A model generated the notes under the pieces. That model had not been told where the DNA came from. It saw nothing but the letters and a program-made list of their open reading frames with translations, and did not search any database. The position numbers and the translations under genes were made by a program. A DNA stretch of 64,000 nt, from NCBI GenBank assembly GCA_943356495.1, contig CALRFF010000001.1, positions 92,864-156,863 of the forward strand, read 5' to 3'. This DNA comes from Candidatus Nomurabacteria bacterium (GTDB lineage Bacteria > Patescibacteriota > Minisyncoccia > Phycocordibacterales > SBAW01). Of this stretch, positions 5,688 through 58,796 are shown in pieces (within the stretch, counting starts at the first letter, position 1; each line of letters opens with the position of its first letter).

Positions 5688-6023
5688 TTATTTTGTGATT
5701 TCGTCTATCTTGGCGGCAACAATGAAGTCGTTTATCGAAAGTCCGCCTATGGCATGGGTAGTAAGCTCCACACCCATGTTGCCGTAGCCCACGGTCATGT
5801 CGGGGTGGTGTTGCTCCTCCTCGGCAATGGCGCCGACCTTGTTGGCAAACGCGAGCGCTTGCTTAAAGTCTTTAAAGGTAAAGGTACGCGCCAGCATACG
5901 ATGCTGGTCTATCAGCATCCACTCTTCGCTCAACTCTTTCATTAGTTCCTCTGTTTGATCGGGATTAAGCGGGTCTACTCCACCCTCGCACGGGACGCAT
6001 TTTTTATCTTTGAGTTTAGCCAT
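5688..6023 (-). CDS. 4a-hydroxytetrahydrobiopterin (pterin-4a-carbinolamine) dehydratase
   Basis: 111 aa with the PCD signature (AIAEEEQHHPDMTVGYGNMGVELTTH). Confidence 0.75.
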   Translation of the reverse strand: MAKLKDKKCVPCEGGVDPLNPDQTEELMKELSEEWMLIDQHRMLARTFTFKDFKQALAFANKVGAIAEEEQHHPDMTVGYGNMGVELTTHAIGGLSINDFIVAAKIDEITK

Positions 6024-6981
6024 GGCGTCGGGCCAACGTTATCACATGGTCAAGAAAATGCGAGAGGCTCGAACCGCCAGCTGCAAGCGCTTTGGGCAAG
6101 AGCGACTCTGAAGTTAAGCCAGGGAGTGTATTAACCTCTAAAAAGTAGATCCCACGCGGACTCACAATAAAGTCCGAACGCGAGTAATGTGCGAGGCCAA
6201 GCCCTTCGTGTACCGCGCGAGCGGCATTGGCAAGCAACTGCTTTTCTTGGTCGGTAAAGTGCCCCGGCACGCGTTCCAAGGTGTGTCCGCTGTATTTGGC
6301 ATCGTAGTCGAAAAAACTCGAGGTGGGCGGCGGCACGATTTCTACCGGCATCAGCGCATAGGTGCGCTCACCTCTAAAATCGTCGAGTACGCCCACGGTC
6401 GCCTCGCGGCCTTTTATAAACTCTTCCACAAGCACCTTAGGCGACACGGCAAACGCGCGCTCAAGCGCCCACTCTAAGCCGTGGAAATTGTGCGCAACCG
6501 ATGTACCCACCGAGGAGCCTCCGGTAACCGGTTTAACGATAGCGGGGTGCGGAAAGGTGCGAAAGAGTTCGTGCGCCAACTCTGTGACACTGCGGCCGCT
6601 TTCCACCACTCTGCCGTGGGCGATTTTTATACCAAGCGGCACCACCGCCTCGCGTGTACGATGTTTGTTAAAGGCAAGGCCGGAGGAGTGCGTACCCGAG
6701 CCGGTGTACGGCACGGCCAACGAATCGAGTAGGCGCTGCACCGTGCCGTCCTCACCGTACTCGCCGTGCATAGCATTAAAGGCCACATCTACCCCGCGCA
6801 ACGCACGCTCGGGGTGCATAGCAACGCCGTGCAGGTGCCACTCGCCGTCGCGCGAGATAAATATATCGCGCGGCTCATATTTTTCCTTATCCAAGTGCTG
6901 CAAAACGCTCGCGCCTGTTTTAAGCGAGACTTCGTACTCATTGCTGGGGCCTCCACGCAATACCCCGACCACAGTTCTCAT
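6016..6981 (-). CDS. ddl: D-alanine--D-alanine ligase
   Basis: ATP-grasp enzyme. N-terminus VGVLRGGPSNEYEVSLKTG and C-terminal EVNTLPGLT motifs typical of Ddl. Confidence 0.9.
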   Translation of the reverse strand: MRTVVGVLRGGPSNEYEVSLKTGASVLQHLDKEKYEPRDIFISRDGEWHLHGVAMHPERALRGVDVAFNAMHGEYGEDGTVQRLLDSLAVPYTGSGTHSSGLAFNKHRTREAVVPLGIKIAHGRVVESGRSVTELAHELFRTFPHPAIVKPVTGGSSVGTSVAHNFHGLEWALERAFAVSPKVLVEEFIKGREATVGVLDDFRGERTYALMPVEIVPPPTSSFFDYDAKYSGHTLERVPGHFTDQEKQLLANAARAVHEGLGLAHYSRSDFIVSPRGIYFLEVNTLPGLTSESLLPKALAAGGSSLSHFLDHVITLARRHG

Positions 6982-42335: not shown

Positions 42336-42896
42336 CTAGAGCTTGGTCGCCCCCGGACAGAAGGAGAAGCCCAGGTTCTTGCCCGAGTAGATGCTGTTAA
42401 CCTGGCTCGGTATGCTTACCCAATAGCGCAAATTGCACGCCTGAAGCCCCGATAGGCCCAGCTTCGCAACCAATACCTGTTCTGCATGCTTGCGCGTGTC
42501 GGCAACCGGCTCTTTTAAAAGAGAAACGATAAAGCTCTGATCCACAGAGGTATATACGATGCTGAACTCCGGAAAGCTGTCGGTAGCGGTGGTTTGCCCT
42601 GCAAGATAGTAGTGTCCGGCATTGTTCGGGTCAGGAATCGTAGCGGCATCTTTAAGAAAATCCTTTACCGTGATGGTGCCGCCGAGCTCGGAGGCTACCT
42701 CAAACATGCCAGGCTCCTGTGCTCCAGTTCCTGGTGTTACCGAAACGCTCCCTCCGCTAGGAATATACGAGGTGCCATCGGCATTGTATGCAGGGGTAGG
42801 AGTCGGTGCCGAGGATGACCACAAAAAAAAGGCTGCGGCCAAACATACCCCTGCCGCCACCACAACCCCTATCGCGATTATCAGAGCTCGTTGCAT
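42336..42896 (-). CDS. hypothetical membrane-anchored secreted protein
   Basis: N-terminal TM/signal (ALIIAIGVVVAAGVCLAAAFFLW) then a Thr/Ser/Gly-rich soluble region. Confidence 0.5.
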   Translation of the reverse strand: MQRALIIAIGVVVAAGVCLAAAFFLWSSSAPTPTPAYNADGTSYIPSGGSVSVTPGTGAQEPGMFEVASELGGTITVKDFLKDAATIPDPNNAGHYYLAGQTTATDSFPEFSIVYTSVDQSFIVSLLKEPVADTRKHAEQVLVAKLGLSGLQACNLRYWVSIPSQVNSIYSGKNLGFSFCPGATKL

Positions 42897-42911: not shown

Positions 42912-43988
42912 TCAATATCCGCACGCTCCCGCAGTGCTCCAATTGCGGATGCCGTTCGGGGTGTTATTAAGCAGCTGCTGCGCCGTATACGTATTGCACT
43001 CGATATTTTGCGCCGCGCTCACACACTGCGCATACAATTCCTGGTCCGCCACGGTCGCCTTGTAGTTCTTACCGTTAAAGGCCTGCGGGCAATTGAGCTT
43101 TTGCCCGTTCGGGCACGAAACCGGGTTCACCGAAATGTTTATTTGATACATGCCCCACGAAAAAGATCTGTTATCGGCCGTAACGTCCGACTGGCTTGCC
43201 CGGCCGGGGTCGCAACTACTTTCTCTCTGGGCGATACAGGACATGGCCGCTGCATTGTTTCCCCATGCATTAGAGAGAGCTCCCGGCGAACAGTCACCTT
43301 TACCAGTTTGGCTGGGGGCGGAGAGTACCGCGTCGCTGACTACGTTGTCATTTTCATCAAGGCATTTCCCGCTGACAACCCGCAGATCTGAACCCGCATT
43401 ATCAGGGCATACCAAGCTGTTACTGGACGATTGCTGAAGCGTGGGCGCGCCTGTTAATTGTCCTTGCGCGTTGTAGCAGTAGCCGTCTGTCCCCGCCGTA
43501 CCACTTTGGCATCCGTAGGAAGCGCTATTGGTGGCCGGAGTAATTGTCGACTTTTGCACACCCGATTGCTGAAACAGCTGCCCTATGTTTTTGTCCATCG
43601 GCCGCACCAAGCCGATGCAGCTAAATGTGGTCCAGCTTTGATACCCCGGAGCAAGTGTTTTTAGCACCGTCTGGACAATAAGCCAGCCGGCGATTGCGAT
43701 ACAAAACCCGATAAGCACCGAAGTAAATATTTTATGCGCTTTTTCTATCTGGCTCGTATTTTCGCGATTGCTAAAGTACAGCCACCCCGCGTAAGAAAAC
43801 ATAATAGCCGCGAGCGGGATGGAAAGCCCGATAGCAAAGTTGATGATGTTTTGTATCAACTGGTCGAAGGTGCACAAGTTGCAGTCGACGGCACCTTGGC
43901 ACGGCACTAGCTCTGCGGCTAGAGCAACCATCGGGACCCCTACCCATACAACACCGGCTGCCGCATACAAAAAAGCACGGAGCTTCAT
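42912..43988 (-). CDS. T4SS-pilin-like (VirB2/TrbC-like) N-terminal domain fused to a C-terminal lytic transglycosylase (SLT/lysozyme-like) domain
   Basis: Signal peptide, CxxxxCxxC then two TM helices (IINFAIGLSIPLAAIMFSYAGWLYF ... VLIGFCIAIAGWLIVQTVL). C-terminal Cys-rich domain with AQRESSCDP and SFSWGMYQINI (ES...GLMQ-like LT motifs). Confidence 0.55.
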   Translation of the reverse strand: MKLRAFLYAAAGVVWVGVPMVALAAELVPCQGAVDCNLCTFDQLIQNIINFAIGLSIPLAAIMFSYAGWLYFSNRENTSQIEKAHKIFTSVLIGFCIAIAGWLIVQTVLKTLAPGYQSWTTFSCIGLVRPMDKNIGQLFQQSGVQKSTITPATNSASYGCQSGTAGTDGYCYNAQGQLTGAPTLQQSSSNSLVCPDNAGSDLRVVSGKCLDENDNVVSDAVLSAPSQTGKGDCSPGALSNAWGNNAAAMSCIAQRESSCDPGRASQSDVTADNRSFSWGMYQINISVNPVSCPNGQKLNCPQAFNGKNYKATVADQELYAQCVSAAQNIECNTYTAQQLLNNTPNGIRNWSTAGACGY

Positions 43989-44013: not shown

Positions 44014-44045
44014 GACCAACCTCTAGTGCGCCGGGGAGGAATTTC
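44014..44045 (-). repeat. partial duplicate of the tRNA-Tyr 3' end (about 17 nt; tRNA fragment/att-like direct repeat)
   Basis: GTGCGCCGGGGAGGAAT at about 44024-44040 repeats GTGCGCCGGGGAGGATT at 44212-44228. No complete cloverleaf can be drawn here. Confidence 0.5.
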
Positions 44046-44174
44046 TCCCTCGACTAAACCTTTGCCGTCGCAAACTTTTGTCTGGGCACCGCCTCGCTCC
44101 CAAGCGTGCTCGCTTGGGTTCCGCTCCGGCGTTCGAATCCTCCCCGCAAGATATCCCATATCTTGCTCCGCGCC

Positions 44175-44212
44175 ACAAAAGAAAAAACCCGCCAAAGCGG
44201 GTCTTTTCTTTT
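44175..44212. terminator. bidirectional rho-independent terminator immediately 3' of tRNA-Tyr
   Basis: ACCCGCCAAAGCGGGT hairpin flanked by AAAAAA and TCTTTTCTTTTG. Confidence 0.6.
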
Positions 44213-44213
44213 G

Positions 44214-44296
44214 TGCGCCGGGGAGGATTCGAACCTCCGTAGCCCGAAGGCGACAGGTTTACAGCCTGTTGTAATTGACCACTCTACCACCGACGC
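44214..44296 (-). tRNA. tRNA-Tyr (anticodon GTA), long variable arm
   Basis: Acceptor GCGTCGG/CCGGCGC, anticodon loop CTGTAAA, variable arm CGCCTTCGGGCTACG, T-arm GGAGG-TTCGAAT-CCTCC. Confidence 0.85.
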
Positions 44297-55671: not shown

Positions 55672-55944
55672 TTAAAAACCGTAGGTCGAAACCGGCGTAC
55701 CCACCATAGTGCCTATCAGTTTAACAATCGCCCAAGAAGACGCCATGATAAACATACCCACCAAGCCGTAAAGCATGTGGCGCTTGCCGTCCTCTTTTTT
55801 GCCCGAGCCTTCGTTGGACAAGCCAAACATAAACTCGACTATGCCAAAGACAAACATAAGCGTGCCTACGGCAAACAATAGTCCAAGTATGGGGTTAAGG
55901 ATGTACTGCACCATCCTCCCCGCAAGCGCAGTAAGCTCCTGCAT
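55672..55944 (-). CDS. T4SS-pilin-like (VirB2/TrbC-like) small membrane protein
   Basis: 90 aa, two TM helices separated by a charged loop (FGLSNEGSGKKEDGKRHMLYGLVGMFIMA). Confidence 0.55.
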   Translation of the reverse strand: MQELTALAGRMVQYILNPILGLLFAVGTLMFVFGIVEFMFGLSNEGSGKKEDGKRHMLYGLVGMFIMASSWAIVKLIGTMVGTPVSTYGF

Positions 55945-55953
55945 AGGCGCTTA

Positions 55954-56298
55954 TCAGCGCGGCACCGGTACGCCCGGGCTTTGTACCGGAGCGTTTGCAG
56001 GCACTCCAAGCGCGCTTTGCGCCAAGGAGATAATGCCCCAGACAGACACCATAACAAACAGCGAGACGAGGCCCGCTATCATGATGTTCTTGCCTTCAGC
56101 GTGACCTTTGCCCGAAGAGCGGATGTATTTGATAAGACCGAAAAAGAATACGATAAGCGCTACCGTAATAAGTATCGGGATAAGCATGGCCACCAAGCGG
56201 CCGATGGCGCCCATGAGCGTCATGAGCGGCTGGAGCGTTTGAGCCGAGGCTACAAGCGGGAGCGCGAACAGGGCGACGGTAAACGTGAGTTTTTTCAT
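55954..56298 (-). CDS. T4SS-pilin-like small protein with signal peptide (copy 1 of a tandem duplicate)
   Basis: MKKLTFTVALFALPLVASAQT signal peptide, then two-helix pilin-like core (GLIKYIRSSGKGHAEGKNIMIAGLVSLFVMVSVWGII). Confidence 0.6.
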   Translation of the reverse strand: MKKLTFTVALFALPLVASAQTLQPLMTLMGAIGRLVAMLIPILITVALIVFFFGLIKYIRSSGKGHAEGKNIMIAGLVSLFVMVSVWGIISLAQSALGVPANAPVQSPGVPVPR

Positions 56299-56318
56299 AT
56301 AAAATTAAATAATACTGA

Positions 56319-56720
56319 CTAATTAATACAACCCCTATGGCAACGGGCTACGTGCGGTGGGGATCGGATAGGCGCCACCGTAGTAGTTAGGTACGCCCGG
56401 GCTTTGTACCGGAGCGTTTGCAGGCACTCCAAGCGCGCTTTGCGCCAAGGAGATAATGCCCCACACCACACCATAACAAACAGCGAGACGAGGCCCGCTA
56501 TCATGATGTTTTTACCTTCGGCATGGCCCTTACCGGAAGAGCGGATGTATTTGATAAGACCGAAAAAGAATACGATAAGCGCTACCGTAATAAGTATCGG
56601 GATAAGCATCGCTACCAAACGACCAATGGCGTCCATAAGCGTCATGAGCGGTTGCAACGTCTGGGCCGAGGCGATAAGCGGGAGCGCGAACAGTGCGGCA
56701 GTAAACGTGAGTTTTTTCAT
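56319..56720 (-). pseudogene. tandem duplicate of the 55954..56298 pilin-like gene carrying a 1-nt deletion frameshift (or sequencing error)
   Basis: First about 84 codons are near-identical to copy 1. The DNA differs at about 56446-56455 (CACCACACC vs GACAGACACC), shifting the frame into an unrelated Arg/Cys-rich tail. Confidence 0.5.
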
Positions 56721-56803
56721 GAAGTTGATATAAAACGGGTGCGCCCTAACTATAGCAGAGAACTGGGGGTGTCAAAATAACCCTGTGGACAGGGCCGTGG
56801 TGT

Positions 56804-57046
56804 CTAATAGAGATTAAGCGCTTCGCGCATAGTGGCCAGTATCCCCCACACGGATACGAGGACAAACATCGCTACAAGGCCCCAGACAATGAGCTCCTTG
56901 CCCTCGGCATGGCCGTGGCTGTCGGAAGACTCGTAGATAAACCGCACCAACCCTATAAAAAAGAATACCAGTGCAATAGCCACCAGTAGCGGAATAATCG
57001 TGTTGATAAGGCCGATAAACTTGCCTACTAAGGCGGCGAAGCTCAT
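56804..57046 (-). CDS. T4SS-pilin-like small membrane protein
   Basis: 80 aa. Two helices with charged loop (ESSDSHGHAEGKELIVWGLVAMFVLVSVWGI). Confidence 0.55.
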   Translation of the reverse strand: MSFAALVGKFIGLINTIIPLLVAIALVFFFIGLVRFIYESSDSHGHAEGKELIVWGLVAMFVLVSVWGILATMREALNLY

Positions 57047-57047
57047 G

Positions 57048-57491
57048 CTAGCAGTTATTGAGCCCCGGCGTGTTTATGTTGAGATCTTTTATCGTGCTTG
57101 CTATCACCTGCCCCAACAGCCATGCGCCCAAAAATATGGCAATGCCCACAACCGTGTAAAAGAGATTGAGTTTTGCCTTTTCTAACGCGGCGGGGTTGCC
57201 GCGCGCCATCACCAAGCGAAAGCCCGCGTACATAACAAAAAACGTGGCTATCGGTATCCCGAAGAGTATAAGTACGTTAAGGATAGCTTTAATGAGCTGG
57301 CAAAAACTCCCTGTTTTGCCCAGTGGGTTTTGCAGGGCAAAAATAGAGTTGCCGAAGGAGTCTTGGCTTTTTTGGACACCGTAGGCGTCTCCGGAGTTCG
57401 GCCCAAAGACGTCGGTAGCGGCCTGTACCGCAAAGGGAGCCATGGTAAGTAACACCAGAGAAAGTGCGGCAAATAAGAAAATCTTTTTCAT
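57048..57491 (-). CDS. T4SS-pilin-like protein with signal peptide and N-terminal extension
   Basis: Signal peptide MKKIFLFAALSLVLLTMAPFAVQA. Cys, then two TM helices (ILFGIPIATFFVMYAGF ... VVGIAIFLGAWLLGQVI). Confidence 0.55.
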   Translation of the reverse strand: MKKIFLFAALSLVLLTMAPFAVQAATDVFGPNSGDAYGVQKSQDSFGNSIFALQNPLGKTGSFCQLIKAILNVLILFGIPIATFFVMYAGFRLVMARGNPAALEKAKLNLFYTVVGIAIFLGAWLLGQVIASTIKDLNINTPGLNNC

Positions 57492-57494
57492 ATA

Positions 57495-58796
57495 CTACTG
57501 AAAGAAAGCGGCAAACTCCTGCGAGGCATCGTTGACTGCTTGTGACGGGTCGGTCTTGCCGGTTGTTACTGATTCTATCATTGCCTTAAAGATAGTGTCG
57601 GTAGACTCGGTGTTAGGGTCAAACCACCCGCGGGAGATAAGCGCCGATTGCGAAAACACCTGCGCCGCGGCATTGGCCGATGTATCTACCGCTACATCGC
57701 GGCGCACTGCAGGCAGGCCCGTGGCGGCCACCACCTGTTGGACGCCCGCTTGGCTTACCAGTTTTTGGGCAACCACCAACGCCCCGCCGGGGTTAGCCGC
57801 CGTGCGCGACACCCCCAAACCGGTAATGCTGCCGTAGGTCAGCCGCGGTCCGTTGCCCTGCAGTTGCGGCAACAGCGCAACACTAAAGTGCAGGTTGGGG
57901 TTGCGCTTAGTCAGTACCGGCAGCTCGCTGGCAAAACCAAAGTACACGGCCAAATCGCCCGCCACAAACGCTTCGGTCGAGTTGTGCAGGGAGCGGTTCC
58001 AGGTGTAGGAGCTTTTAGAGGGGTTGGCAAACTCGGTATAAAAACGCAGTGCCGACTCGGCGGGGTTGGTGGCAACGCCCGGCGCCGCGGTGCCGAACAC
58101 GCTGGCAAGGTAGCCTTGCTCGTTGCGGCTTACTATCGGGTCCCCCGCCTGCATAAACAGCGCAGACAATATCGCCTTGGCATGCGACACGTTGCCCCAC
58201 GCGCCGAGCGCCACCGCGCTGCGGCGCACGTTCTGCGAAGTATCTATAGAGGTTATTTTTTGCGCCAAGGTTAAGAGCTCGTTCCAGTACACGGGTGCCT
58301 GCGCCACCCCTGCGCCCGCCAACAAATCGCGGTTCCAGTACATGACCAACGGGTCGATCATAAACGGCAACGCCCAGCTGCCTTGGCTGTTTAAAAAGAT
58401 GTTCGCCTCATCGACAAACGAGTTGGTAAAGGTCGACTGTGACACCGAACTGTAGGGTATATTGAGCACTTTGTCGGCAAACGCGCCTATCGACTCTTGG
58501 GTCAGCATAAACAGGTCGGGCCCGCGACCCGCGGCAATGGCATTGATAAGTATCTGCTGGTAGGTGGCCTTGTCGGCCTCAAGATACGTAACGTCCTGAA
58601 AACTCTTATCAGTGGCGCGCAAGTTTTGCAGTACCATGCTCATTTGCTGCTCGTCTGCGGTGCCCCAAATGGTCACCTGCCCGACCGACGTGCTGCCGGT
58701 TACGCCTCCAAAGGCCGCAAACACGCCCACGCCGATAATAGTAAAAACCACAAATGCGGTGGTAACTATTATTTGAAAGGTGCTTATCGACTTCAT
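57495..58796 (-). CDS. extracellular solute-binding protein (ABC transporter SBP, family 1-like)
   Basis: N-terminal TM/signal anchor then a periplasmic-binding-protein-like domain. 433 aa. Confidence 0.75.
   Translation of the reverse strand: MKSISTFQIIVTTAFVVFTIIGVGVFAAFGGVTGSTSVGQVTIWGTADEQQMSMVLQNLRATDKSFQDVTYLEADKATYQQILINAIAAGRGPDLFMLTQESIGAFADKVLNIPYSSVSQSTFTNSFVDEANIFLNSQGSWALPFMIDPLVMYWNRDLLAGAGVAQAPVYWNELLTLAQKITSIDTSQNVRRSAVALGAWGNVSHAKAILSALFMQAGDPIVSRNEQGYLASVFGTAAPGVATNPAESALRFYTEFANPSKSSYTWNRSLHNSTEAFVAGDLAVYFGFASELPVLTKRNPNLHFSVALLPQLQGNGPRLTYGSITGLGVSRTAANPGGALVVAQKLVSQAGVQQVVAATGLPAVRRDVAVDTSANAAAQVFSQSALISRGWFDPNTESTDTIFKAMIESVTTGKTDPSQAVNDASQEFAAFFQ

Follow-up and report, generated by a model that had tools for sequence, protein, structure and literature searches.

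A 64 000-nucleotide stretch of a Candidatus Nomurabacteria genome (contig CALRFF010000001.1, positions 92 864 to 156 863; called the window below) carries, at 42912–43988 on the minus strand, a gene whose 358-residue product joins a pilin-type membrane module to a domain of the lysozyme superfamily. We read this protein as a membrane-anchored, outward-facing peptidoglycan glycosidase with a single catalytic Glu, which would act as a VirB1-like wall opener serving a type IV secretion system (T4SS) or pilin apparatus and would be controlled by a cognate partner, the product of the next gene (here called P); we put the probability of this reading at roughly 0.55. The target could be the wall of the producer or that of a host, and both are entertained here, a wall opener with a cognate regulator being our best reading. 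It builds on domain identities, a fold, conserved residues, family size and gene linkage, starting from the following features.

42912–43988, minus strand: whole gene of the fusion protein in the list of open reading frames (ORFs), 358 residues plus stop codon (42912–42914).
43914–43988, minus strand: signal peptide, residues 1–25, MKLRAFLYAAAGVVWVGVPMVALAA, from sequence, hydropathy and the conserved N-terminus; cleavage is predicted after ALA.
43872–43901, minus strand: extracytoplasmic cysteine motif C30-x5-C36-x2-C39; all close relatives keep C36 and C39.
43653–43877, minus strand: VirB2-like helical hairpin, residues 38–112, with the short basic loop SNRENTSQIEKAHK, from Pfam, AlphaFold2 and hidden Markov models (HMMs).
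43617–43652, minus strand: conserved post-membrane segment APGYQSWTTFSC, residues 113–124; W119 and C124 are invariant in the close-family alignment.
43326–43616, minus strand: variable linker, residues 125–221, with two Cys-bracketed hairpins, C160–C171 and C194–C209, from the model and alignments.
42915–43325, minus strand: lysozyme-superfamily catalytic domain, residues 222–358, with the E256 codon at 43221–43223 and S277 at the position of lysozyme Asp52.
42336–42896, minus strand: partner gene P, 186 residues, starting 15 nucleotides after the stop codon of the fusion gene.

The lysozyme fold of the C-terminal domain is established by its predicted structure, and in the models the nearest solved relatives are C-type lysozymes, with lytic transglycosylases moderately further off. 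A profile built from seven close C-domains and compared with all PDB sequences matched solely C-type lysozymes and alpha-lactalbumins, the best match being the Musca lysozyme 3cb7 (E = 1.9e-4). The alignments pair sCIAqkESS...GlyQvN with CIAEHESS...GIFQIN, and QGiraWStaakC with QGWTAWSTWKYC. The ranking is unchanged with an 80-sequence profile, and the family profiles matched none of the GH23 enzymes in the PDB. A PDB search with the single sequence gave no match, the lysozymes being reached by the family profiles alone. When the full-length model was compared with the PDB by Foldseek, weak helical-bundle matches were returned (best E = 0.84); because the long N-terminal helices dominated that search, the C-domain was modelled alone (residues 220–358, 80-sequence alignment), with a predicted local distance difference test score (pLDDT) of 93.2 and a predicted template modelling (TM) score of 0.85. 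The top 50 Foldseek matches of this model are all C-type lysozymes (probability 0.95–1.0, E about 1e-2, TM about 0.5). An earlier note on this DNA had named two results that would speak against its reading, a C-terminal domain without a lysozyme-like fold and an N-terminus that matches no pilin profile; neither was obtained. Similarity of the model to solved transglycosylases is also present, and structure comparison of the C-domain model gave these values:

Bombyx C-type lysozyme, 9.5
alpha-lactalbumin, 8.1
phiKZ gp144, 7.1
EtgA, 6.9
DslA, 6.6
MltC, 6.4
Slt, 6.2
RpfB, 6.1

The earlier note had likened the domain to SLT-type lytic transglycosylases on the strength of a Cys-rich C-terminal part with the motifs AQRESSCDP and SFSWGMYQINI. 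Both motifs are present, and 8 of the 17 Cys of the protein lie in residues 233–356; the lysozyme-like fold holds in the model, and SLT (PF01464) scores 12.8 bits against a cutoff of 21.3. SLT_3 (PF18896, 'lysozyme like') reaches 18.1 bits with the whole protein and 21.7 with the domain alone (cutoff 27). PF00062, the C-type lysozyme family, has no match in the target and matches four of seven close relatives, with a best E of only 0.021. Since it has no Asp52 and its PF00062 score is below the cutoff, the domain fails membership of GH22, and its best place within the lysozyme superfamily is on a divergent branch close to Pfam SLT_3.

The residues expected of a catalytic groove are strongly conserved. 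No substitution of E256, Q282 or W350 occurs in either the full-length alignment (89 sequences) or the domain alignment (80 sequences); N284 is invariant in the latter and nearly so in the former, and D268, S277 and G279 are conserved at 90 per cent or more. The catalytic Glu-Ser and the GLMQ-like motif proposed from the sequence thus correspond to E256 and to G279, Q282 and N284. E256 stands in the sequence R-E256-S-S, at the end of helix 235–257 and before a conserved Ser/Gly; it aligns with lysozyme Glu35, and S277 with Asp52. The same correspondence (E35 to E256, D52 to S277) is given by hhalign of the family against one hen lysozyme sequence, an alignment of 3 per cent probability that was used for residue correspondence and not as proof of homology. 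C251, C322 and C356 align with lysozyme C30, C80 and C115 in HMM alignments. GH23 lytic transglycosylases and g-type lysozymes use a single Glu in an E-S motif, and such enzymes are fully active without an Asp52 equivalent. Because the family has one clear catalytic carboxylate, E256, and a conserved Ser in place of Asp52, its chemistry is probably like that of a lytic transglycosylase or g-type lysozyme, and not the hen-lysozyme mechanism; D268 may be a second carboxylate.

The N-terminal part matches the pilin profile PF18895 (T4SS_pilin) over residues 41–107, covering profile positions 5–70 of 71, with 28.7 bits against a gathering cutoff of 26.6, in agreement with the pilin-like anchor first suggested. 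NCBIfam adds a weak match to a mycoplasma pilin-like conjugal transfer family. AlphaFold2, run with the 89-sequence alignment, predicts helices at residues 2–27 (the signal peptide), 38–73 and 78–112 with pLDDT of about 75–92, the two hairpin helices reaching about 82–92, and hydropathy peaks fall at residues 3–31, 44–70 and 85–113. Positive charge is confined to one stretch, the loop SNRENTSQIEKAHK between the two long helices; the flanking segments are acidic or neutral and Cys-rich. By the positive-inside rule both ends of the hairpin would lie outside and the loop in the cytoplasm, as in VirB2/TraA pilins. The 16 Cys outside the membrane segments, the signal peptide and the confinement of basic charge to the loop fit an outward-facing catalytic domain.

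Members of the fusion family conserve C36 and C39 jointly with W119 and C124, which follow the second helix, suggesting that disulfides from the Cys motif to C124 tie together the outer ends of the hairpin. The motif is C-x5-C-x2-C (C30, C36, C39) and not CxxxxCxxC as previously written. The comparison then made with the pilin-like genes at 55.7–57.5 kb holds in part. Those genes are indeed of the PF18895 type, and the N-module of the fusion protein is closest to the one at 57048–57491 (33% identity; N-module HMM, E = 2e-12), with which it shares the two-helix architecture; the Cys motif, however, is absent from every pilin gene at 55.7–57.5 kb, and a signal-peptide-like N-terminus is found in only three of the five small ORFs. 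With 358 residues and a passenger of about 250, against 80–147 residues for the small pilins of the window, the fusion protein passes the PF18895 profile test and is atypical as a pilin by its size and passenger domain. In the model the linker shows short beta strands, with pLDDT low to moderate, and it differs in length and sequence among homologues. Its segments C160-x10-C171 and C194-x14-C209 are alike, each forming a small beta hairpin in the model; the linkers of homologues contain comparable Cys pairs. These segments may be mini wall-binding or spacer modules.

The mechanism that we propose follows from this layout. After removal of the signal peptide, the VirB2-like hairpin would sit in the membrane with its ends outward and the short basic loop in the cytoplasm, and the disulfide-braced linker of about 100 residues would place the lysozyme-superfamily domain in the zone of the wall. 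There the enzyme would cut the glycan strands of peptidoglycan outside the cytoplasm, as the wall-opening component, fused to a pilin-type module, of the Patescibacterial T4SS or pilin-array apparatus, a task that falls to VirB1 in Gram-negative systems and to PrgK, TraG (pIP501) and CwlT in Gram-positive conjugation. P would most likely be an inhibitor or immunity protein that restrains the enzyme at the wall of the producer itself.

P has a membrane anchor at its N-terminus, then a low-complexity linker and a domain of about 100 residues with two conserved Cys (36-sequence alignment). No terminator-like site occurs in the 15 nucleotides between the fusion gene and P. When each GTDB species was represented by a single genome, scanning gave 35 loci with the lysozyme-like gene, nearly all from Patescibacteria, a few bearing automated 'Bdellovibrionales' or unspecific 'bacterium' labels; they were found with a seven-sequence C-domain alignment, and the sample is biased to the motif [FV]S[YWS]G[LM][YF]Q[IV]N. 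In 29 of these 35 loci a homologue of P lies immediately downstream, including behind enzymes that have no pilin module. It is also the next gene at the loci L001–L003, L006 and L007 and, by alignment, at L004 and L005. No relative of P was found in Pfam or the PDB, and in this respect it is not sequence-recognisable as a known lysozyme inhibitor such as PliC/MliC or Ivy.

Where the catalytic domain is different, so is the next gene. The pilin-SLT genes at the ClpB-L33 locus of related genomes are followed by a membrane-anchored family of 228–229 residues, of which the two examples are 34% identical to each other and have only the anchor region in common with P; the pilin-CHAP gene is followed by a third protein, of 144 residues. 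P is found at none of the four non-lysozyme loci, against 29 of the 35 lysozyme-like ones (hypergeometric p = 0.003, in a small sample of related genomes). As P also follows enzymes of about 1000 residues without the pilin module, it tracks the catalytic domain and not the anchor, the pattern that an inhibitor, immunity protein or regulator specific to the enzyme would show. Proteins of 432–435 residues encoded just upstream of the fusion gene at two loci (L016 7987–9285; L022 4342–5649) match the partner-family HMM, and Pfam finds nothing in the former; this suggests that a longer partner paralogue exists within T4SS-linked clusters.

Sixty homologues of the fusion protein were found, the named relatives belonging to Candidatus Adlerbacteria, Nomurabacteria, Kaiserbacteria and other Paceibacteria-type Patescibacteria; their public names are 'hypothetical protein' or 'pilin'. 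An exhaustive search of 1.84 billion representative proteins with the C-domain profile recovered 781 clusters (50% identity) at E ≤ 1e-3 and 411 at E ≤ 1e-10. The pilin module is also present in 113 of the 144 best new representatives, the remainder being mostly short and possibly fragments. Homologues of the N-module are joined to other wall-hydrolase domains, namely SLT (PF01464), SLT_3 or CHAP (PF05257), and at the ClpB-L33-MiaA locus of related genomes the same pilin module carries SLT or CHAP. It also occurs with C-terminal passengers of no recognisable family, in proteins of 330–425 residues that are often encoded beside the lysozyme-like fusion:

L009 8159–9277: pilin module with unrecognised passenger
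L022 7478–8470: pilin module with unrecognised passenger
L027 1755–2768: pilin module with unrecognised passenger
L028 5775–6989: pilin module with unrecognised passenger
L042 3523–4800: pilin module with unrecognised passenger
L006 8961–9980: pilin module with unrecognised passenger

Pfam gave nothing for the C-terminal domains of several of these proteins, one of which has a weak DUF7057 match, and the passenger range of the pilin module seems wider than wall hydrolases.

Both modules are detected by local HMMs in 22 of the 35 GTDB-locus genes, and six more are cut by contig ends. The linkage of these genes to secretion genes lends indirect support to a VirB1-like role. Among the 71 largest neighbouring ORFs, nine have the TraG P-loop and AAA_10 domains in Pfam and were confirmed as VirB4-type ATPases (TraC_F_IV, CagE_TrbE_VirB); in 9 of the 35 loci such an ATPase lies 2–7 kb upstream of the lysozyme-like gene on the same strand. 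With an assumed chance of 3 per cent per locus, about one such locus is expected and the binomial probability is 7e-7, a figure that ignores the relatedness of the genomes. At four of these loci VirB4 is directly followed by a long protein (929–1070 residues) that ends in the lysozyme-like domain:

L018 7676–10462: long lysozyme-like protein after VirB4
L023 6504–9581: long lysozyme-like protein after VirB4
L025 7478–10387: long lysozyme-like protein after VirB4
L033 7313–10522: long lysozyme-like protein after VirB4

These proteins of about 1000 residues have no pilin module, the partner gene is still next to them, and their first 800 residues or so have no Pfam match; two of the four score 28.3 and 26.7 bits with SLT_3. 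The order of VirB4 and long lysozyme-like protein agrees with what is reported for Southlakia, where virB4 has just downstream of it an essential homologue of lysozyme (PMC12102498).

At four other loci, none of them among those with VirB4 (L021, L030, L032 and L039), the order is gyrA, a small ORF, a protein of about 434 residues, the fusion gene and P, and in L030, L032 and L039 pilin genes come directly after the pair. The ORF at 57495–58796 of the window is orthologous to the 434-residue proteins, at 27–32% identity (E 1e-33 to 1e-70). These lie directly upstream of the fusion gene and downstream of gyrA; in the window the ORF abuts the pilin array and is a few kb from gyrA, and relatives have the fusion gene and P at that place. 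It probably belongs to the same system as the pilin and pilin-lysozyme cluster. The pair is 12 kb from the pilin array in the window and forms one cluster with it in relatives. The features concerned are listed here.

55672–57491, minus strand: small PF18895 pilin array (Pfam), probably of a filament or partner system; members 57048–57491, 56804–57046, 56319–56720 (frameshifted), 55954–56298 and 55672–55944.
57495–58796, minus strand: 433-residue membrane-anchored protein with a weak match to SBP_bac_6, solute-binding-protein-like (Pfam).

The tandem pilin genes 56319–56720 and 55954–56298 are near-identical over about 350 nucleotides. The former has a 1-nucleotide deletion that shifts the frame after residue 83 or so and leaves an aberrant ORF of 133 residues, a pseudogene or a sequencing error. 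At the loci L006 and L007, around the homologue P0045, two tandem pilin-fusion genes and the partner stand beside genes for type IV pili (T2SSE ATPase, T2SSF platform and N_methyl pilin) and not beside a T4SS.

The organism makes peptidoglycan, as indicated by a D-Ala-D-Ala ligase at 6016–6981. The window has a G+C content of about 55%, 12 tRNAs and core genes for UvrABC, Ddl, TGT, topoisomerase I, ParB, MiaA, ClpB, IF-2 and GyrA. The fusion gene is flanked upstream by tRNA-Tyr and ClpB and downstream by the 186-residue ORF, L33, tRNA-Trp and MiaA. The order ClpB, fusion gene, ORF of about 190 residues, L33, MiaA, ParB, RelA, TopA is kept around relatives of 48%, 40% and 30% identity. No riboswitch or other RNA element was found upstream of the fusion gene; only the two tRNAs passed the thresholds. 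In the 225-nucleotide spacer 5' of the gene the 3' end of tRNA-Tyr (44213–44296) is partially copied twice, at 44021–44040 and 44131–44146:

44021–44040, upstream spacer: direct copy of the tRNA-Tyr 3' end, 20 nucleotides, 90% identical.
44131–44146, upstream spacer: inverted copy of the tRNA-Tyr 3' end, 16 nucleotides, perfect.

Integrase-type recombination at the tRNA could have left these copies as scars, which would fit a cassette-like swapping of hydrolase domain and partner at this locus.

The protein is identical to a public metagenome record, P0001, which was called from Met20, is 339 residues long and thereby loses the signal peptide. As the N-terminus MKLRA(F/L)(L/W)YA is kept in the close homologues P0002, P0003 and P0008, the 358-residue start is the better call. 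Public 5' ends are unreliable in this family (P0001 and P0013): the first residues of P0013, MVEWSITTGCKPVA..., are the translated upstream tRNA-Tyr gene, as is the ORF 44054–44290 of the window.

The closest functional parallel is with the VirB1 class (VirB1, PrgK of pCF10, TraG of pIP501, CwlT of ICEBs1, TcpG), exported or membrane-anchored glycosidases of the lysozyme superfamily whose genes share T4SS clusters with VirB4, as 9 of the 35 relatives do here. The Gram-positive members have an N-terminal membrane anchor and are modular with CHAP or NlpC-P60, which fits the SLT and CHAP variants of the present family. Unlike them, the fusion protein has a VirB2-type pilin hairpin (PF18895) as its anchor in place of a simple transmembrane helix, a catalytic domain that resembles C-type lysozyme more closely than SLT, a cognate downstream partner, and a gene that in the window lies in no T4SS cluster. 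The small VirB2/TrbC-like pilins of Patescibacteria (PF18895; arrays in PMC12102498 and PMC10633639) have the homologous module, a signal peptide and a two-helix hairpin, but not the length of 358 residues, the 250-residue extracytoplasmic passenger or the signature C-x5-C-x2-C ... W-x4-C around the hairpin, and in this genome the fusion gene is away from their array.

As for the catalytic domain, its alpha+beta fold is closest to the C-type lysozyme and alpha-lactalbumin family (GH22, PF00062), with E256 as Glu35. It differs in the Ser replacing the Asp52 nucleophile, a score below the PF00062 cutoff, extra loops, the lack of the C-terminal tail that carries C127, and its bacterial, membrane-tethered state. 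With GH23 and SLT enzymes it shares the single catalytic Glu in an E-S motif at a helix end; unlike GH23 and SLT_3 proteins, it scores 18–22 bits against the SLT_3 cutoff of 27, and its family profile matches GH22 and no GH23 in the PDB. Effector/immunity pairs (T6SS, type VI secretion, Tse3-Tsi3; Xanthomonas T4SS X-Tfe/X-Tfi) offer another parallel, as they too combine a wall hydrolase with a small envelope protein that tracks the catalytic domain, and exchange C-terminal domains on a conserved N-terminal module. For the present pair delivery to another cell is hypothetical, its N-module is a pilin hairpin and not a secretion signal, and its locus is syntenic core genome.

Several observations weigh against a wall opener of a T4SS. 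VirB4 is absent from the 64-kb window in a six-frame search with an HMM built from relatives, and no T4SS or type IV pilus machinery was seen among 30 Pfam-scanned ORFs of the window, which include all above 550 residues and leave several of 300–514 residues unscanned. The fusion gene lies outside any T4SS cluster in the window and its immediate neighbours are housekeeping genes. The C-domain is below the curated cutoff of every lysozyme-clan Pfam model, and activity is not guaranteed with a Ser at the Asp52 position. The role of the partner rests on gene order and co-variation, the non-lysozyme loci are few (four), and one SLT locus, L046, has no partner gene. The VirB1-like idea of the earlier note gains indirect support from VirB4 in 9 of 35 loci and from pilin arrays in four others, all of them in other genomes than that of the window.

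The same evidence can be read in other ways. It is rather unlikely, in our view, that the protein is a host-directed polymorphic effector, in which the pilin module delivers the lysozyme-like domain to the wall of a host or competitor on a T4SS-type pilus and P is an immunity protein. A conserved N-module with interchangeable hydrolases (lysozyme-like, SLT_3, SLT and CHAP) at one orthologous locus is the arrangement of polymorphic toxin loci, the downstream gene switches along with the catalytic domain, tandem duplicated pairs exist (L013 and L019) as do tandem fusion genes (L006 and L009), and P also follows the long lysozyme-like proteins that lack the pilin module. The termini of the pilins are on the outer surface of VirB2/TraA filaments, so that a C-terminal passenger could be displayed there. 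It has been proposed that Patescibacteria harm the envelopes of their hosts with lytic transglycosylases (PMC11665869). However, polymerisation of the pilin module is without support, a 250-residue passenger on each subunit is hard to square with VirB2-type packing, the pairing of enzyme and inhibitor can also serve self-regulation, and the gene, present as a single copy, keeps its place in a housekeeping region across relatives as distant as 30% protein identity, which most fast-moving toxin cassettes do not. A more elaborate form of the idea, which we regard as unlikely, is that pilin subunits serve as carriers of interchangeable wall-degrading enzymes, placed at the tip or base of a T4SS-type pilus or sparsely along it, by which a C-type-lysozyme-like domain would reach the host wall where the cells attach, with P as a new lysozyme-specific immunity family that protects the producer.

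The conserved arrangement with ClpB, L33 and MiaA equally fits a housekeeping autolysin, which would remodel the organism's own wall during growth or division, with the hairpin as a mere anchor and P as a regulator. This is quite improbable, although the core-genome position (ClpB, tRNA-Tyr, gene, P, L33, MiaA, ParB) is conserved, the organism makes peptidoglycan, reduced genomes have few wall hydrolases, and the replacement by SLT or CHAP at the locus suggests that any wall hydrolase suffices; it leaves unexplained why other lineages repeatedly have the gene physically linked to VirB4 and to pilin arrays, and why the anchor is a hairpin of the T4SS-pilin type that brings a conserved Cys staple. 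That the domain is a non-catalytic module, binding peptidoglycan or another glycan as an adhesin or wall anchor, is very improbable indeed. Alpha-lactalbumin is an inactive relative of lysozyme, and the Ser at the Asp52 position and the scores below the Pfam cutoffs would suit such a module; against it, all 89 and all 80 aligned sequences keep the Glu, which is followed by a conserved Ser/Gly, the groove residues Q282, N284 and W350 are conserved, single-Glu enzymes of GH23 are active without an Asp52 equivalent, and a dedicated domain-specific partner makes most sense with an active enzyme.

A fusion of VirB2 and hydrolase, which the first inspection of the sequence did not recognise, is not described in the open-access literature that we found, including PMC12102498, PMC12857230, PMC10633639 and PMC11665869; as far as could be found, the pilin-hydrolase fusion, the domain-specific partner family and their cassette-like swapping are undescribed. 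The survey of Patescibacterial T4SS reports VirB2-like pilins in most genomes and VirB1 homologues in few, and leaves other glycosidases possible (PMC12102498). In one genetically tested species the T4SS and its pilin array are essential, and the function of the system is not established (PMC10633639, PMC12857230). Patescibacteria depend on surface contact with host cells.

The large family of pilin-fused wall hydrolases escapes VirB1 profiles and offers a concrete candidate for the VirB1 function that is reported as mostly missing; if pilin subunits were indeed carriers of such enzymes, this would explain both the 'missing VirB1' and the way in which epibionts breach the host wall. The fusion gene and P constitute a defined two-gene unit of an enzyme and a putative inhibitor, and the exchange of both domain and partner at a single locus may suggest an effector-like rather than a simple housekeeping behaviour. 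The family is also a well-populated bacterial branch of the lysozyme superfamily, nearer to animal C-type lysozyme than to SLT, and useful for enzyme classification. As a secondary possibility, it would be a bacterial family nearer to the animal C-type lysozymes than any solved bacterial enzyme, with a bearing on the origin of GH22.

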